Below are positions 802 to 9,804 of a stretch of 15,359 bases of DNA, piece by piece. Under the pieces are notes generated by a model that did not search any database, was not told the DNA's origin, and saw nothing but the letters and a program-made list of their open reading frames with translations. A program made the translations under genes and the position numbers. Source of the DNA: a virus. The stretch lies in UHGV virus genome UHGV-1915822. One strand, written 5' to 3'. Every line of letters starts with the position of its first letter. Position 1 is the first letter of the stretch.

Positions 802-938
802 AGATCAGGAGACAAAGACAAAATGAATATGTTTATTTGTTATTTATATTTTTTCTCGTTTTTCTATTTATTTTATAAGGTTATTCGTTCGCTCATTTGC
901 GAATGCATAAAATTAAATAAGGAAGGGAGGGAAATGGA

Positions 939-1193
939 ATGAAGTATGTAAAAAAGAAGATTAAGGTATATTATTATACGGCTCACAGGATGATTTTAGA
1001 AAATGGCAGCCCTAAGTCAATAGGTGAATATACGATTTCATATTCAAGTAAAAATGCGCAGGATCGTGTAATTCAAGACTTATTTAATAAAAAGTATGGG
1101 CAAGGGGTATATTTAGTAACGAGTATTACTGAGCAGGAAAAAATTTATGGTATGCCTTTAGATGAATTTATTACAAAAGCGGAGGAATTGTAG
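939..1193 (+). CDS. phi29 p6-like double-stranded DNA-binding (histone-like) protein
   Basis: 84 aa, ribosome-binding site GGAGGG (926-931) 7 nt upstream. The C-terminal segment NKKYGQGVYLVTSITEQEKIYGMPLDEFITKA resembles the phi29 p6 segment KRKYKGEGRVTVVSVEPNTEVYELPVEKFLEVA as I recall it. It sits immediately upstream of the SSB-like gene, as in phi29 (gene 6 then gene 5). Confidence 0.55.
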   Translation: MKYVKKKIKVYYYTAHRMILENGSPKSIGEYTISYSSKNAQDRVIQDLFNKKYGQGVYLVTSITEQEKIYGMPLDEFITKAEEL

Positions 1194-1194
1194 T

Positions 1195-1602
1195 ATGGAA
1201 AACAATATTGTCATGTTTAACCCGGATTTGGAGAATGGTATGTACACTTCTTTAGATTTGGAGACCAAAGAAGGTAAAGCAAAAGCTATGAAGGCCATGA
1301 GTCGTTGCGACTATTCTTTATCGAAAATGGTAAATAAACAGGTTGTTGTTAAAGATATTTTTCTTCAGCCGGTTGAGGTAAAGGATAAAGAAACAGGTGA
1401 AGTGCGGGAATTGATTCGTACTGTTTTATTTGATCCGGAGGGTAAAAGCTATTATTCATTGTCGGCTGGATTTGTACGGCAAGTAAAATTGCTGTTGTCG
1501 ATTTATGGACAGCCGTCGGAATGGGAGGAGCCGATTACGATTTCGATTCGGCAAGATGAATTACCCGATGGAAAACGTACTTTTTCATTTGATGTATTGT
1601 AG
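1195..1602 (+). CDS. phi29 p5-like single-stranded DNA-binding protein
   Basis: ATG at 1195 directly after the upstream stop (1191-1193), GGAGG at 1181-1185. This is track ORF 1162..1602 trimmed to the start with a ribosome-binding site. N-terminus MENNIV and C-terminus KRTFSFDVL resemble recalled phi29 p5 (MENTNIV ... NVFFSLQLSL). Size is 135 aa. Confidence 0.55.
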   Translation: MENNIVMFNPDLENGMYTSLDLETKEGKAKAMKAMSRCDYSLSKMVNKQVVVKDIFLQPVEVKDKETGEVRELIRTVLFDPEGKSYYSLSAGFVRQVKLLLSIYGQPSEWEEPITISIRQDELPDGKRTFSFDVL

Positions 1603-1612
1603 GAAGGAGGAC

Positions 1613-1638
1613 GGGGAGGTAAAAACTCCCCTTTCTTT
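1613..1638 (+). terminator. intrinsic-terminator-like hairpin (GGGGAG / CTCCCC stem, 7-nt loop, T-rich tail)
   Basis: Stem 1613-1618 pairs with 1626-1631, loop GTAAAAA, followed by TTTCTTTAT. It sits between the SSB stop (1602) and the next start (1641). Confidence 0.5.
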
Positions 1639-1640
1639 AT

Positions 1641-1949
1641 ATGAGAGATTTATACATGGATTTAAAAAGAAGTCCTCATAAAATTCAGAGTAAAAACGGT
1701 ATTTTGTTTTATTTTTCTTCACAAAAGAGATGTACAAAATTTTGTGATGTGATATCAGCTTTTTGCGAGGATGAAGCGCATAAAATGAGTAATCGATATA
1801 AAATTTATATTGATTTTACAATTTTATATGAAATTATGCTGTATATGCAAATTGAGAAATACGGATTTTATATAGAATATAAGGGGGATGCGTTTACATG
1901 CCCAACGCAGGTAAAGTTAGATGGAGAGAAGCTGACGAAGCTAAGTTAA
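1641..1949 (+). CDS. phi29 p4-like transcriptional regulator
   Basis: 102 aa. ILFYFSSQKRCTKF and MLYMQIEKYGFYIEYKGD resemble the phi29 p4 segments VTFFFSSELYLNKF and FYSEVEKRGFHAWLKGD as I recall them. It sits between the SSB and terminal protein genes, as gene 4 does in phi29. The 3-prime end overlaps the terminal protein gene by 52 nt in another frame. The nearest SD (GGAGG 1606-1610) is 30 nt upstream, separated from the ATG by the hairpin. Confidence 0.45.
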   Translation: MRDLYMDLKRSPHKIQSKNGILFYFSSQKRCTKFCDVISAFCEDEAHKMSNRYKIYIDFTILYEIMLYMQIEKYGFYIEYKGDAFTCPTQVKLDGEKLTKLS

Positions 1950-2623
1950 AAAATCTGGTTAAGCGTTTTAATGCAAAGGTTGCCCGAAATGTAAAAAAGG
2001 GTGGGTTGATTGCGGAGGTACAACCAGCACCAATAAAAACAGCCGAATTGCGGGAAACATTAAAAGCAATTAGCAGGCGGGATGTAAATTATAGCTTCCA
2101 AAAGCTGGAAAATTATTTGCGTAAGGGTGCAGAGATGCCATATACGACTAAGAAGGGTGTAAATACAACCGTATGGCAGAAAAAGGAAATTGACAGGGCA
2201 ATAAGAACGATTAACGCCAGAAACAGGCAAGAATTATCGGATTATGAAATTGGGCCATATAAAGGAAATATTGGGACGATTGAAAGAAGTAATATGCGTC
2301 CGAGAAAGAACAGAGTGCAAACGCTTGAGCCTAAAGATTGGGACAGATATGTGGAAAGGCTGGATCGGCAGGTTTATGCTACGAATATCAGTGCAAAGAG
2401 CGCAAGATATAAAGAAAATTTTTTAAAAGCGATTGAAACTACCTTCGGGTCTAACTCAAAGCTATATCAAGCGATTCGTAAAATACCCCCTGAAATGTTG
2501 CATGAATATTATTATACTGATCCAATTTTAACCGTTCAATTTGTATCTGATCCACGTGAAGCCGAAGAAATACAACGTAGGATGTTAGACCGATTAGATG
2601 AAGAAGGTTTACTTCTTGAGTGA
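1898..2623 (+). CDS. terminal protein (protein primer for DNA replication)
   Basis: 241 aa. N-terminus MPNAGKVRWREADEAKLKNLVKRFNAKVARNVKKGG aligns residue-for-residue in length with the recalled phi29 TP N-terminus MARSPRIRIKDNDKAEYARLVKNTKAKIARTKKKYG. Ribosome-binding site AAGGGGG (1881-1887). It is immediately upstream of the polymerase, and its stop overlaps the polymerase GTG start (GTGA). Confidence 0.8.
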   Translation: MPNAGKVRWREADEAKLKNLVKRFNAKVARNVKKGGLIAEVQPAPIKTAELRETLKAISRRDVNYSFQKLENYLRKGAEMPYTTKKGVNTTVWQKKEIDRAIRTINARNRQELSDYEIGPYKGNIGTIERSNMRPRKNRVQTLEPKDWDRYVERLDRQVYATNISAKSARYKENFLKAIETTFGSNSKLYQAIRKIPPEMLHEYYYTDPILTVQFVSDPREAEEIQRRMLDRLDEEGLLLE

Positions 2624-4299
2624 GATATTGCGCTGATTTTGAGACGATCAACGATAAAGATGATTGTCGGGTTTGGGCTTGGTGGATTTCTGAAATTGAC
2701 AATGAAGAAAACAGCGAAAAAGGAAATGACATTGACAGTTTTATGTCCTCTTTATTTATGTATTGCGGGGATACCGTGTATTTTCATAATTTAAAGTTTG
2801 ATGGTGAATTTATTTTAAATTGGCTTTTTAGGAATGGATATACGCATATTCGAGATACGAAATTTAGTAAGGAAAAAACTTTTACTACGTTAATTAGTGA
2901 TACAGGTGCATTTTATTCCATGAAGATTTGTTTTCTTATGCAGGATAAAAAGCCTTTATTTGTAACCATTATTGATAGCTTGAAGATTATTCCTTTAAGT
3001 ATTCGGCAAATGGCTAAGGCGTTCGGATTAGAAGTGTCAAAGGGAGAGATTGATTATAATGCCTTTCGGCCTGTTGGGTATGAACCCAGTGTGGAGGAAT
3101 GGGATTATATCAAGCGTGATGTATATATTGCTTGCCGGGCATTAAGTGTTTTGTTTAATCAGGGGTTAAAAAAGATTACGCAAGCCAGTAATGCAATGGC
3201 CGATTATAAAAAGACGATTCCGAAGAAATTTAGCCGTTGGTTTCCAAAGATTGCGTATGATGCAGATATTCGTAGGAGTTATAGAGGAGGGTTCACTTAT
3301 TTAAACCCAAAGTTTAAGGATATGGACTTAGGTGAGGGCATTGTATTAGATGTAAATAGTTTATATCCTTCTGTTATGTATTATGAGCGTTTACCGTATG
3401 GGGAGCCTATTGCTTTTGAAGGCGAGTACAAGCCGGATGATTTATATGATTTATACGTTCAAAAATTTGCGTGTCAATTTGAATTGAAGAAGGGAAAAAT
3501 TCCTACCGTACAATTAAAGAACAATTTGAGCTTTGTGCCGACGGAATATTTAACATCGTCAGGCGACCAATATGTAACGATGTATATGACGAATGTAGAT
3601 TTAAAATTATTTTTAGAAAATTACGATGTGTATGATCTGGATTATCATAGAGGCTGGAAATTTAAAAGCGCTGAAGGTTTATTTAAAGAATATATTGATA
3701 AATGGATGAAAATAAAGATTGAAAGTGATGGCGTGAATCCGGGTATGAGGCAATTAGCGAAGCTCATGTTAAATGCTTTATATGGTAAATTTGGATTAAA
3801 CCCTGAAATACGAAGTAAAATTCCTTATTTGGACGAAGGGATTATTAAATATCAAACGGTAAAGGAAGAAGATCGAGATCCAATATATATTCCGATGGCT
3901 TCTTTTATCACCAGTTATGCCAGAAATAAAACGATACGATCTGCGCAATCGGTATATGATCGTTTTGTGTATGCAGATACAGACAGCTTGCATTTATTGG
4001 GTTTTGATTATCCTGAGGGGCTGGATATTGACGCGCACCGGTTGGGGGCATGGAAGCCTGAAAGTCGTTTTCATCGTGCCCGTTTTTTACGCCAGAAATG
4101 CTATATTGAGGATGAATTGGATAAAGACGATCAAGCTAAAGGGTTAAAGATTGTGTGCTCAGGCTTACCGGAAGAATGCTATGGGCAGGTGAATTGGGAT
4201 AATTTTCATTATGGGGTGACGTACGAAGGTAAATTGTTCCCTTATCATGCAAAAGGGGGAATCGTATTGACAGAGGGAGAGTTCACCTTAAGGAAATAG
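2620..4299 (+). CDS. protein-primed family B DNA polymerase (phi29-type)
   Basis: 559 aa. Exo I motif in YCADFETIND, Exo II YFHNLKFDGEFIL, motif A DVNSLYPS, motif B KLMLNALYGKF, motif C YADTDS, and KxY in LRQKCY. All closely parallel phi29 DNA polymerase. GTG start at 2620. Confidence 0.95.
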   Translation: MRYCADFETINDKDDCRVWAWWISEIDNEENSEKGNDIDSFMSSLFMYCGDTVYFHNLKFDGEFILNWLFRNGYTHIRDTKFSKEKTFTTLISDTGAFYSMKICFLMQDKKPLFVTIIDSLKIIPLSIRQMAKAFGLEVSKGEIDYNAFRPVGYEPSVEEWDYIKRDVYIACRALSVLFNQGLKKITQASNAMADYKKTIPKKFSRWFPKIAYDADIRRSYRGGFTYLNPKFKDMDLGEGIVLDVNSLYPSVMYYERLPYGEPIAFEGEYKPDDLYDLYVQKFACQFELKKGKIPTVQLKNNLSFVPTEYLTSSGDQYVTMYMTNVDLKLFLENYDVYDLDYHRGWKFKSAEGLFKEYIDKWMKIKIESDGVNPGMRQLAKLMLNALYGKFGLNPEIRSKIPYLDEGIIKYQTVKEEDRDPIYIPMASFITSYARNKTIRSAQSVYDRFVYADTDSLHLLGFDYPEGLDIDAHRLGAWKPESRFHRARFLRQKCYIEDELDKDDQAKGLKIVCSGLPEECYGQVNWDNFHYGVTYEGKLFPYHAKGGIVLTEGEFTLRK

Positions 4300-4328
4300 T
4301 TTACAATTTGTGTAAAAAAGTATATAAT
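4300..4328 (+). promoter_or_regulatory. sigma-A-type promoter upstream of the packaging ATPase gene (TTTACA-N17-TATAAT)
   Basis: TTTACA at 4300-4305 immediately after the polymerase stop, 17-bp spacer, TATAAT at 4323-4328. Confidence 0.5.
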
Positions 4329-8119: not shown

Positions 8120-8149
8120 GGGGAGCTTTTCGCTCCCCTTTTTTCTTTT
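8120..8149 (+). terminator. rho-independent terminator after the capsid gene
   Basis: Stem GGGGAGC (8120-8126) pairs with GCTCCCC (8132-8138), 5-nt loop, then TTTTTTCTTTT. Confidence 0.8.
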
Positions 8150-8166
8150 ATAGAAAGGGTGAAAAT

Positions 8167-9804
8167 ATGGAAATTATACCGAATGGAGTTGTAAGGCTAT
8201 GCGCGAATATCCCTTGGGATCCTACCTATAGCGATGTTCGGAAATTTAACAGCGTAGGAGAGCAAACCTCATATATAGCAGGGAAAGCGATTAAAACCTA
8301 TAATAATGTATCCTACCAACGTCCGACATCTAGTGTAGCCCCTCCACGGCCTGCCTTTACCTGCGCTGTACCCGATGTAGCCGATGATCTTTATAACTGT
8401 AACTATATTATGTTTCAAAATACAAATTTCGGCTCAAAATGGTTTTACGGTTTTGTCCGACAGGTAAATTATGTAAACCCGAATTGTACCCATATTGTAT
8501 ATGAAATAGACCAATATCAAACTTGGTGTTTTGATTACGAAGTATTACCGTCTTATGTAGAGAGGGAACACGCCGAAACCGATGAATTATATGAAAACCT
8601 ACAGCCTGAACCGTTTACAGGGTTAGAGACCATTGTAACGGATATTCAAACCGTGCGTCCCAATGGGGGTAGCCCCGATTATAAGATTGTGGTTTGCACA
8701 AACGCTGTTCCGGAAACAGGAGAACCCTCTCCCGGTCAGGTTATTGATAACGTATATTCAGGACTTACCTTTACAGAGTTTTCAGCCAGTGACGGCGGAG
8801 CCGCCGCAAACAATTTTATAAAAGGCTTCAGTGCAGGAACATGGGATCGAATTTTAGATGGGGAAATCCCCTATTTAAGAGCAAGGATTGATGCCATTAT
8901 CAGTATTTTTATGTCACCTTATTCTGTTGTATCTCCCCCAACAAACGACACCGTGACCTTAGAACGGCCTACTACGTTAAATGGTTACGAGCCCAAAAAT
9001 AAAAAAATGCTTACCTATCCGTATTGTTGTTTGGATGTATCGAATAACTGTGGACAAACAAGAACATACTTATACGAAAAATTTACAACGGGAACATCTG
9101 TGTTTCCTATTGAATTCAATCAATATTATACCGCAGGATTTAACCCGACGATTGTTTCATTACCCTCGTTTTATGATAGTGATACAACCGTACAAGGACG
9201 GGGTAACGCAGATATGGCTATTCAGCTTTCAACCTTCCCAGTATGTGGGTGGAGCGGAGACGCTTTCAGCGATTGGCTAAATAATGAATATCAATCAAAA
9301 CAAAGCGGGATTTTATCGAATTTAGCAATCGGTATTGCCGGTGTGTTATTATCAGCAGGAACAGGAGGGGTAGCCGGTACAGCTTTAGCAGTAGGGGCAG
9401 GCAGGGAATTATTAAGCGGTATTTCCGAAGGTGCTTCGTTAGGAAGAGAAAAACAACTTCGTTCACAATCACAGGGTGCTACAATGGCAACCCCGTTAAA
9501 TAGTAGCTTTAATTTCAAAACAGACAGTGTAGGCATCACCTATAAACAAAAAGCTATCCGTGCGGAAATGGCCGAAGCGATTGATAGCTATTTTGATATG
9601 TATGGCTATGCGACTAACAAGGTCAAGGTGCCGAATGAGGATAGCCGCCCGTCATGGAATTATGTAAAATGCGATAATGTCATCATTCACGGCTCATGCC
9701 CGGTTGAAGCCATTACCACGATAAAAACCCTTTATAATAACGGCGTTCGTTTTTGGCATACCGACAGCGTGGGAAACTTTGCTTTATATAATGGGGTGGA
9801 ATAA
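8167..9804 (+). CDS. tail knob protein (phi29 gp9-like)
   Basis: 545 aa. YIMFQNTNFGSKWFYGFV parallels phi29 gp9 YIMFQNADYGNKWFYAFV, and C-terminal RFWHTDSVGNF parallels TLWHTDNIGNY. Ribosome-binding site AAAGGGTGA. Confidence 0.85.
   Translation: MEIIPNGVVRLCANIPWDPTYSDVRKFNSVGEQTSYIAGKAIKTYNNVSYQRPTSSVAPPRPAFTCAVPDVADDLYNCNYIMFQNTNFGSKWFYGFVRQVNYVNPNCTHIVYEIDQYQTWCFDYEVLPSYVEREHAETDELYENLQPEPFTGLETIVTDIQTVRPNGGSPDYKIVVCTNAVPETGEPSPGQVIDNVYSGLTFTEFSASDGGAAANNFIKGFSAGTWDRILDGEIPYLRARIDAIISIFMSPYSVVSPPTNDTVTLERPTTLNGYEPKNKKMLTYPYCCLDVSNNCGQTRTYLYEKFTTGTSVFPIEFNQYYTAGFNPTIVSLPSFYDSDTTVQGRGNADMAIQLSTFPVCGWSGDAFSDWLNNEYQSKQSGILSNLAIGIAGVLLSAGTGGVAGTALAVGAGRELLSGISEGASLGREKQLRSQSQGATMATPLNSSFNFKTDSVGITYKQKAIRAEMAEAIDSYFDMYGYATNKVKVPNEDSRPSWNYVKCDNVIIHGSCPVEAITTIKTLYNNGVRFWHTDSVGNFALYNGVE

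Follow-up and report, generated by a model that had tools for sequence, protein, structure and literature searches.

A terminator-like hairpin between the Shine-Dalgarno sequence and the start codon of the p4-like gene of phi29-like phages as a candidate leaky terminator and split ribosome-binding site

In a 15,359-nucleotide stretch of the virus genome UHGV-1915822 (hereafter the window), a short element was analysed that lies at the junction between a phi29-type single-stranded DNA-binding protein (SSB) gene and a p4-like late transcription regulator gene. The window is a segment of a phi29-like podophage with all its major genes on the + strand, and at this junction the only Shine-Dalgarno sequence (SD) of the p4-like gene is separated from the start codon by a GC-rich hairpin. 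We consider it probable, judging from the sequence of the window and its relatives, that this is a dual-purpose RNA module of the early operon, combining a leaky terminator with a split ribosome-binding site. The GC hairpin and its U-tract would act as a leaky intrinsic terminator, the positional counterpart of TA1 of phi29, so that the upstream genes (the open reading frame (ORF) at 939-1193 and SSB) would be covered by more transcript than p4, terminal protein and DNA polymerase. In read-through transcripts the hairpin would stay folded and 19 nt would be looped out, bringing the sole SD (1602-1610), 30 nt away, to an effective distance of 11 nt from AUG 1641, from which the 30S subunit would start p4. 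Weak pairing of the SD with the U-rich tail may damp initiation further, and the combined features would keep the late-gene regulator low or delayed. The element and its two flanking genes are laid out as follows.

1195 to 1602, + strand: phi29-type SSB (p5-like) gene (PF17427 Phi29_Phage_SSB, 1.7e-10; phrog_6243)
1602 to 1610, + strand: Shine-Dalgarno sequence GGAAGGAGG, 2 nt 5' of the stem; AAGGAGG at -10.1 kcal/mol with the anti-SD
1613 to 1618, + strand: 5' arm of the hairpin, GGGGAG, pairing with 1626-1631
1619 to 1625, + strand: 7-nt loop GTAAAAA, in which an in-frame TAA (1620-1622) closes the p4 frame upstream
1626 to 1631, + strand: 3' arm of the hairpin, CTCCCC, pairing with 1613-1618
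1632 to 1640, + strand: U-rich tail TTTCTTTAT, a terminator-like U-tract and 9-nt spacer between helix and start codon, with a possible weak pairing to the SD
1641 to 1949, + strand: p4-like late transcription regulator gene (PF05464 Phi-29_GP4, 3.6e-11; phrog_10365 'late transcriptional activator')

The SSB gene stops at TAG 1600-1602, of which the final base overlaps the first G of the SD; the sequence after this stop codon is GAAGGAGG up to 1610, followed by an AC linker and the stem. Between G1610 and A1641 the linear gap is 30 nt, and excision of the 19-nt hairpin leaves 2 + 9 = 11 nt. The stem consists of six base pairs, five of them G-C, and within the 30-nt spacer the hairpin (-12.3 kcal/mol) makes up 97% of the ensemble (z = -2.64; 1/200 dinucleotide shuffles equal), the folding z being only -1.56 in the wider 86-nt context. 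No SD-like 7-mer was found at a normal distance from ATG 1641, the best anti-SD duplex there being +1.6 kcal/mol. A consensus scan placed 1613-1631 among the three top terminator-like sites of the window, the other two being both strands of 8120-8138, and the element displays the GC stem of at least 5 bp, the loop of 3-8 nt and the U-tract directly 3' (TTTCTTTA, 6 T in 8 nt) by which intrinsic terminators are recognised. The coordinates of SD, 6-bp hairpin, tail and ATG 1641, and the shortening from 30 to 11 nt, had been given by an earlier sequence-only reading of the window, and all of them hold on base-by-base re-reading. A small ORF served by the upstream SD was considered as well and rejected, there being no ATG, GTG or TTG in 1611-1640 and none consistently in relatives.

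The evidence that carries the proposed reading comes from the comparison of p4 upstream regions across the phage family. Megablast of window 900-4300 against GenBank phages gave zero matches and relatives were not found among JGI metagenome contigs scanned with the window p4; a profile scan of IMG/VR yielded 80 loci with p4 homologues (29-45% identity), to which six GenBank records and contigs of close relatives were added. For each locus the conserved N-terminus M-x-T-R-N-G-I-x-Y-x-L-K-x-S and the in-frame starts were located, after which upstream hairpins and SD strength were annotated. The 66 distinct p4 upstream regions fall into three layouts, leaving two that fit none. In type A (29/66), to which the window belongs, the order is SD, GC-rich hairpin, U/A-rich tail (usually 8-11 nt) and ATG; in type B (27/66) a hairpin with T-tail is followed by SD and start codon; type C (8/66, PZA and GA-1 included) has an SD and start only. 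A phage in culture, Hungatella phage CH17P1, is of type A, its element reading AAGGAG AAT GGGCGGCG AAACAAT CGCCGCCC TATTTCAAT ATG.

The type A layout is built from at least 17 unrelated stem sequences, for instance GGGCGGCG, AGCGGGCGGAC, GCCGACTGC and GGCTGCTAGTCA, or AGCCGGGGA, AAAAGGAGGG, AGGGGAGC and AGCCGCAT. In 17 representative type A spacers a hairpin is predicted at -12.3 to -22 kcal/mol (-12.5 to -22 kcal/mol for the 16 other than the window's), with z of -2.6 to -6.6 and 0-3 of 200 shuffles equal. A MAFFT alignment of 25 type A elements gave no consensus in RNAalifold, the stems differing in length and standing out of register. A DNA-level protein operator is an unlikely role for the hairpin, since no sequence is common to the stems and, of 21 distinct type A hairpins, 17 fold better as + strand than as - strand RNA, a strand comparison biased by a hairpin finder that permitted G-T pairs on the + strand. 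In composition, type A stems generally have G-rich 5' arms and C-rich 3' arms. The window's own 5' arm, extended by two loop bases (GGGGAGGT), resembles an SD, and its 3' arm with the tail (CUCCCCUUUCUUU) is similar to the anti-SD region of 16S rRNA.

The two layouts that contain a hairpin differ in the side on which the SD stands. A strong SD 5' of the stem (within 18 nt, -7 kcal/mol or stronger) is present in 28/29 type A and 0/27 type B regions, whereas an SD that follows the stem and precedes the start codon (threshold -6 kcal/mol) is seen in 25/27 type B but 0/29 type A regions; the lone type A exception, L009, arises from the maximal-stem definition, which absorbed its SD. Each gene thus has one SD on either side of the hairpin, the pattern expected if the 5' purine tract is the SD of p4. 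Because this tract is present exactly where the normal SD is missing, it is not a general accessory of terminators. All 29 type A genes start with ATG, and in nearly every locus the sole in-frame starts lie directly 3' of the hairpin. The distance from the GGAGG core to the start is 29-44 nt in type A (median 35) and contracts, with the hairpin excised, to a median and mode of 12 nt (11 in the window; about 5-7 nt by hand in the L009/L011 clade), with an SD-to-stem linker of most often 2 nt. Where the SD is placed normally, in types B and C, 4-12 nt separate it from the start (median 8), and the one value beyond this range, 15, comes from a misassignment.

For the window, a further in-frame ATG has to be weighed as a possible alternative start.

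1656 to 1658, + strand: second in-frame ATG (Met6), preceded by a weak SD-like TGAGAGA (1642-1648, -5.0 kcal/mol)

ATG 1641, the start that we prefer, follows the stem by 9 nt, a distance also found in other type A loci. Residues 2-86 of the window protein align to profile positions 6-90 of PF05464, and by our own reading of two alignments R2, at profile position 6, would take the place of phi29 Arg6. In phi29 p4, Arg6 is the one residue of the N-hook that contacts a base, and DNA binding is lost when it is substituted (PMC3100819). Were translation to begin at 1656, R2 would therefore be lost; a minor or alternative start at this codon is possible. It bears on an explanation that we judge unlikely, namely that the hairpin is only a terminator, with p4 translated from ATG 1656 via the weak GAGAGA or without any SD, and with the upstream SD serving something unrelated, such as a STAB-SD-like stabiliser that binds 30S subunits. 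TGAGAGA is indeed spaced normally from ATG 1656, the window clade has kept both ATGs and in L091 the gene caller picked the equivalent of the second one. Yet such an account leaves unexplained why a perfect SD precedes the hairpin in 28/29 type A regions versus 0/27 of type B, other type A genes lack a second ATG or weak SD while the N-terminus M-x-TRNG begins right after the hairpin, and the residue removed would be R2.

The layout is also specific for its gene. The window and the 89 loci, 90 sequences in all, were scanned on both strands, at all candidate starts of ORFs of 50 aa or more, for the pattern of no near SD, a hairpin ending 5-13 nt upstream and a strong SD just 5' of that hairpin; the 38 matches are all at p4, with 0 elsewhere. 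A chance juxtaposition of purine run, hairpin and ATG might be suspected from the window by itself, in which the stem is short and the folding z modest (-2.64; -1.56 for 86 nt), but we find it scarcely credible against a layout that recurs in 29 distinct regions of different sequence, at p4 only, with mutually exclusive SDs and a compensatory change in the stem. In a neighbour-joining tree of p4, which is poorly resolved for this 100-aa protein, type A is spread over at least five clades, with B and C interspersed among them, implying repeated origin or repeated loss of the layout.

Among the close relatives of the window, the nearest p4 cluster (P0001, 94% protein identity) comprises three contigs, L087-L089. 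Over 160 nt around the element they share all but a few coding positions with the window, and the element itself has changed in the loop alone, by one 1-base deletion and one substitution. A more distant relative, L091 (DNA polymerase 85% identical), reads GAAGGAGGAC GGGGCG CGAAAA CGCCCC TTTCTTAT ATG: the fifth pair of its stem has changed from A-U to C-G on both sides, a compensatory change, while SD and 2-nt linker are as in the window and the tail is shorter by one base. The SD is thus invariant in L087-L089 and L091, and all six stem pairs are kept in the three distinct sequences of the window clade. The double change in L091 is of the kind expected for conserved pairing; the covariation score is reached by 176/500 shuffles, three sequences being too few for statistical weight. 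The distance from SSB stop to p4 ATG differs by 0, 1 and 2 nt among three close relatives, and because these consequently use three different relative frames, the stretch in between is non-coding. A p4 protein extended N-terminally through the hairpin, as called in L087-L089 (P0001, 118 aa), was rejected on the same grounds, the indels in loop and tail giving three frames, and on the in-frame TAA at 1620-1622 of the window. Polymerase relatives at about 60% identity include both layouts, L092 being type B and L093 type A.

That the folded hairpin would bring SD and start codon together, as the sequence-only reading had suggested, gains comparative support from the at least 17 stems, the mutually exclusive SDs and the excised spacing of 11-12 nt, and further from the compensatory stem change and the frame-shifting, loop-only indels in the window clade, as well as from a geometry like that of gene 25 of phage T4. 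It is in our view the best-supported interpretation of these sequences. In T4, gene 38 and gene 25 have split ribosome-binding sites in which folding shortens the SD spacing from 22 to 5 nt and from 27 to 11 nt, respectively, and mutagenesis and probing showed that the structure enhances initiation (PMC3014915; Nivinskas et al. 1999 and Malys and Nivinskas 2009, as summarised there). The window shares with these genes an SD too far from the AUG (30 nt, compared to 27 and 22 in T4), a stem-loop wholly in between and a structure conserved within a phage group but missing in more distant relatives; its folded spacing of 11 nt is that of gene 25 (gene 38 has 5). The sequence features by which a split site can be recognised are present, namely a linear SD gap above about 15 nt, a stem-loop wholly within it, a folded distance of 5-13 nt, no alternative near SD and conservation with covariation. 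Unlike the T4 elements, with which there is no sequence homology, those described here have a function read from sequence, belong to phages with probable Gram-positive Clostridia hosts rather than E. coli, have much stronger hairpins (-12 to -22 kcal/mol) with an intrinsic-terminator-like U-tract, and precede the regulator gene of a protein-primed podophage, relatives of which alternate the SD 5' and 3' of the same hairpin.

Several points weigh against the split-site reading. Start codons and hairpins were assigned by our own scripts, the starts by N-terminus conservation, and most comparison loci derive from one metagenome study and are not fully independent. The host is assumed, and the SD energies take its anti-SD to be Firmicute-like. 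With 6 bp and -12.3 kcal/mol the window stem is the weakest of the type A set, the excised type A spacing (11-12 nt) exceeds the canonical one of the family by about 4 nt, and many type A tails are poor U-tracts, such as TATTTCAAT and GTACTTATT. ATG 1656 with its weak SD-like motif is conserved in the clade. Finally, the SD of the window is predicted to be mostly paired with the U-tail at equilibrium (mean probability of being unpaired 0.17), and this pairing could repress rather than help initiation.

The latter point underlies an alternative that we deem improbable, in which the element is mainly a translational repressor that masks the SD with the U-rich tail and keeps p4 low, the hairpin having no positive role. 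In both the minimum free energy and the centroid structure of the window, GGAGGA pairs with UUUCUU, extending the helix by about -4.6 kcal/mol with three G-U pairs. Similar extensions occur in L004, L008, L009, L011, L012, L013 and L070, with mean unpaired probabilities of the SD of 0.1-0.7, and half of the type B genes have weak TTG or GTG starts. The extension is, however, far weaker than the pairing of SD and anti-SD (about -4.6 vs about -10 kcal/mol), absent in L074, L077 and L082, and near-automatic, because a purine tract is placed opposite a U-tract. Moreover, masking alone does not explain how p4 is translated without an SD near its ATG. SD masking is compatible with the split site as a modulating layer on top of it. 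It also recalls SD-sequestering hairpins, such as those of riboswitch platforms or of T4 genes e and I-TevI, where the SD is likewise able to pair with a pyrimidine tract beside a stable helix; unlike in those, the stable helix of the window excludes the SD, and only the weak, G-U-rich extension includes it.

An ordinary start codon is missing from one p4 clade, consisting of L031, L062, L068 (all around 2940-2990) and L002 (2944-2975), in which a hairpin is followed by the SD AAAGGAG. Between the upstream stop and the conserved N-L-T-R-N-G these loci have no in-frame ATG, GTG or TTG with an SD before it; only ATT or ATA candidates lie 3' of the SD, and the ATG of L002 sits upstream of the SD. 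Together, this clade and the weak type B starts suggest selection for low p4 translation, which would be sensible for a protein that times the transition from early to late expression.

The closeness of the SD to the end of the SSB gene raises a further possibility, termination-reinitiation, to which we assign only a small likelihood: ribosomes that finish SSB would be held by the SD and restart at AUG 1641, the hairpin shortening their path and independent 30S entry being minor. Heavy translation of SSB is to be expected, and in the window and several type A loci the SD overlaps or closely follows the SSB stop codon. The stop-to-SD distance varies in type A, however, with extra sequence in between in some loci, ordinary independent ribosome-binding sites suffice in the type B and C relatives, and the stem would be covered at its base, and melted there, by any ribosome standing on the stop codon.

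As to the terminator side of the split-site model, we infer termination at the window hairpin from its sequence and its counterparts in relatives. At the same SSB/p4 junction the type B relatives have a textbook terminator. In PZA, ACGTGGCATC...GATGTCACGT followed by TTTTTCTTTT lies at 1266-1292, inside gene 4; the annotation of Nf gives a 'TA1 terminator of transcription' inside gene 4 and that of GA-1 a 'putative terminator TA1 (located at the beginning of gene 4)'. The phi29-family terminator TA1 presumably favours production of p5 and p6 (PMC11476376). A terminator at the SSB/p4 junction is on these sequences a family trait. Just before the start codon, the 8 nt are 60% T and 1% G in type A and 56% A and 21% T in type B; after the stem the mean number of T is 4.2/8 in type A and 3.9/8 in type B, with a background T fraction of 0.28. 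The attenuation after SSB that the sequence-only reading had envisaged is thus consistent with the comparison, in the form of the type B terminators, TA1 in phi29/PZA, Nf and GA-1, and the T-rich type A tails. The consensus scan found no + strand promoter-like site of at least 10/12 between 1640 and 4299, and since no good promoter-like site separates the hairpin from the end of the polymerase gene the terminator must be leaky, which fits its 6-bp stem; expression of p4, terminal protein and polymerase should depend on read-through.

With TA1 of phi29, Nf, GA-1 and PZA the window hairpin shares its location where genes 5 and 4 meet in the early operon and the gene order SSB, p4, terminal protein and polymerase. 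Unlike it, TA1 lies inside gene 4, at about codons 17-26 in PZA with a T-tract that encodes FFFSS, and is combined with a normal SD 5-10 nt from the ATG; the window hairpin is intergenic, between SD and ATG, and so stands outside gene 4. A phi29-style TA1 hairpin was looked for inside the p4 gene of the window and not found, and neither the window nor any locus of type A or B has a hairpin before the FYFSS codons. The window hairpin would therefore be a positional analogue of TA1 and not demonstrably its orthologue. An ordinary intercistronic terminator with ribosome-binding site, as in type B at the same junction or at 8120-8167 of the window, has the same GC hairpin and T-tail but differs in its order of hairpin, SD and start, making the hairpin irrelevant to the spacing of SD and start.

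The latter example had been noticed before for its stem, said to be nearly the same as that of the element, a statement that is borne out by six common pairs, the capsid copy being one longer.

8120 to 8138, + strand: terminator after the capsid gene, GGGGAGC/GCTCCCC, -13.5 kcal/mol, with the same six stem pairs plus one

Here the order is the ordinary one of hairpin, T-tract, SD AGAAAGGGTGA and ATG 8167, and what the resemblance establishes is likeness of sequence. Stems of the form GGGGAG(C)/(G)CTCCCC occur, besides twice in the window, in the hairpins upstream of p4 in L074 (AGGGGAGC...GCTCCCCT) and L085 (AGGGGAGAA...TTCTCCCCT).

It is possible, though we lean against it, that both activities are coupled more tightly into a composite device. 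The terminator hairpin would then be the obligatory bridge of the split ribosome-binding site, p4 would be translated solely from transcripts that escape the terminator with the hairpin folded, the SD would double as partner of the U-tract, and occupancy of the SSB stop and the SD by ribosomes or 30S subunits would feed back on termination and p4 initiation, forming a timer of the early-to-late transition.

The surroundings of the element in the window are those of a phi29-like early operon.

333 to 361, + strand: sigma-70-type consensus promoter-like site TTGACA-17-TATAAT, 12/12 match, putative early promoter
939 to 1193, + strand: ORF directly upstream of the SSB gene
1898 to 2623, + strand: terminal protein gene, 3' of the hairpin
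2620 to 4299, + strand: protein-primed DNA polymerase gene, 3' of the hairpin

The site at 333-361 is likely the early promoter of an operon that runs through SSB into the hairpin, with small ORFs between it and the SSB gene. The order SSB, p4, terminal protein and DNA polymerase and the overlap of p4 and terminal protein genes are the same in PZA/phi29, Nf and GA-1; 3' of the polymerase gene follow the packaging ATPase, lysis genes, the capsid gene and others. The early genes (SSB, p4, terminal protein, DNA polymerase) and the late ones (ATPase, capsid, connector, tail) are on a single strand in the window, whereas in phi29 and in Hungatella phage CH17P1 the two blocks are divergent. Another strong promoter-like site, TTTACA-17-TATAAT (11/12), stands at 4300-4328, after the polymerase gene and before that of the packaging ATPase, and is a candidate for a late promoter under p4 control. 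An AT-rich gap of 173 nt (766-938), lacking a + strand ORF of at least 40 aa, separates the ORF at 939-1193 from the small early ORFs before it. At the left end, the sole - strand ORF with a good promoter-like site of its own (48-215) has this site at 251-279 on the - strand (TTGACA-17-TATACT with a TG extension), diverging from that at 333-361 and forming with it a back-to-back promoter pair. In the whole window no Rfam family was matched at the gathering threshold, including the pRNA expected for phi29-like phages.

The comparison also returned some observations on the p4 family itself. Between SSB stop and p4 SD of three type A loci from two clades, a near-perfect palindrome, GTTTCACGTGAAAC, is found (L013, about 2898-2915; L030 and L061, about 2896-2912), perhaps the binding site of a protein. 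Eggerthella phage LE1-1 (L094, MW679025.1), a member of the Guelinviridae with an actinobacterial host, has at 701-1105 a p4 homologue that shares 40% identity with the CH17P1 protein and is preceded by a short intergenic spacer of the ordinary kind (type C); the p4 family is therefore not confined to Salasmaviridae or to Firmicute hosts. Type A p4 genes are overlooked or given a wrong start by gene callers: in Hungatella phage CH17P1 (OP172758.1; L004 2974-3288) the gene has no annotation and in L093 (about 1964-2270) it was left uncalled, it is extended through the hairpin in L087-L089 (118 aa), and in L091 it was started at the second ATG (291-584, 97 aa).

Split ribosome-binding sites are a curiosity of the textbooks, based on two T4 genes, and SD dependence is strong in Gram-positive hosts. 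In the literature searched we found no prior description of this layout in phi29-like phages. If the proposed reading is true, these phages would provide a second and much larger natural family of such sites, with dozens of independent stems, probably in Gram-positive hosts, and with a built-in natural control in the relatives that have the SD across the hairpin, on its opposite side. A single hairpin would then serve transcription termination and translation initiation together, and as the cultured phage CH17P1 has the layout, the idea is directly testable. The rationale that we infer is one of dosage and timing: the findings suggest that phi29-like phages keep p4 scarce by several routes, either by TA1 within the gene, by weak start codons or by a split ribosome-binding site.

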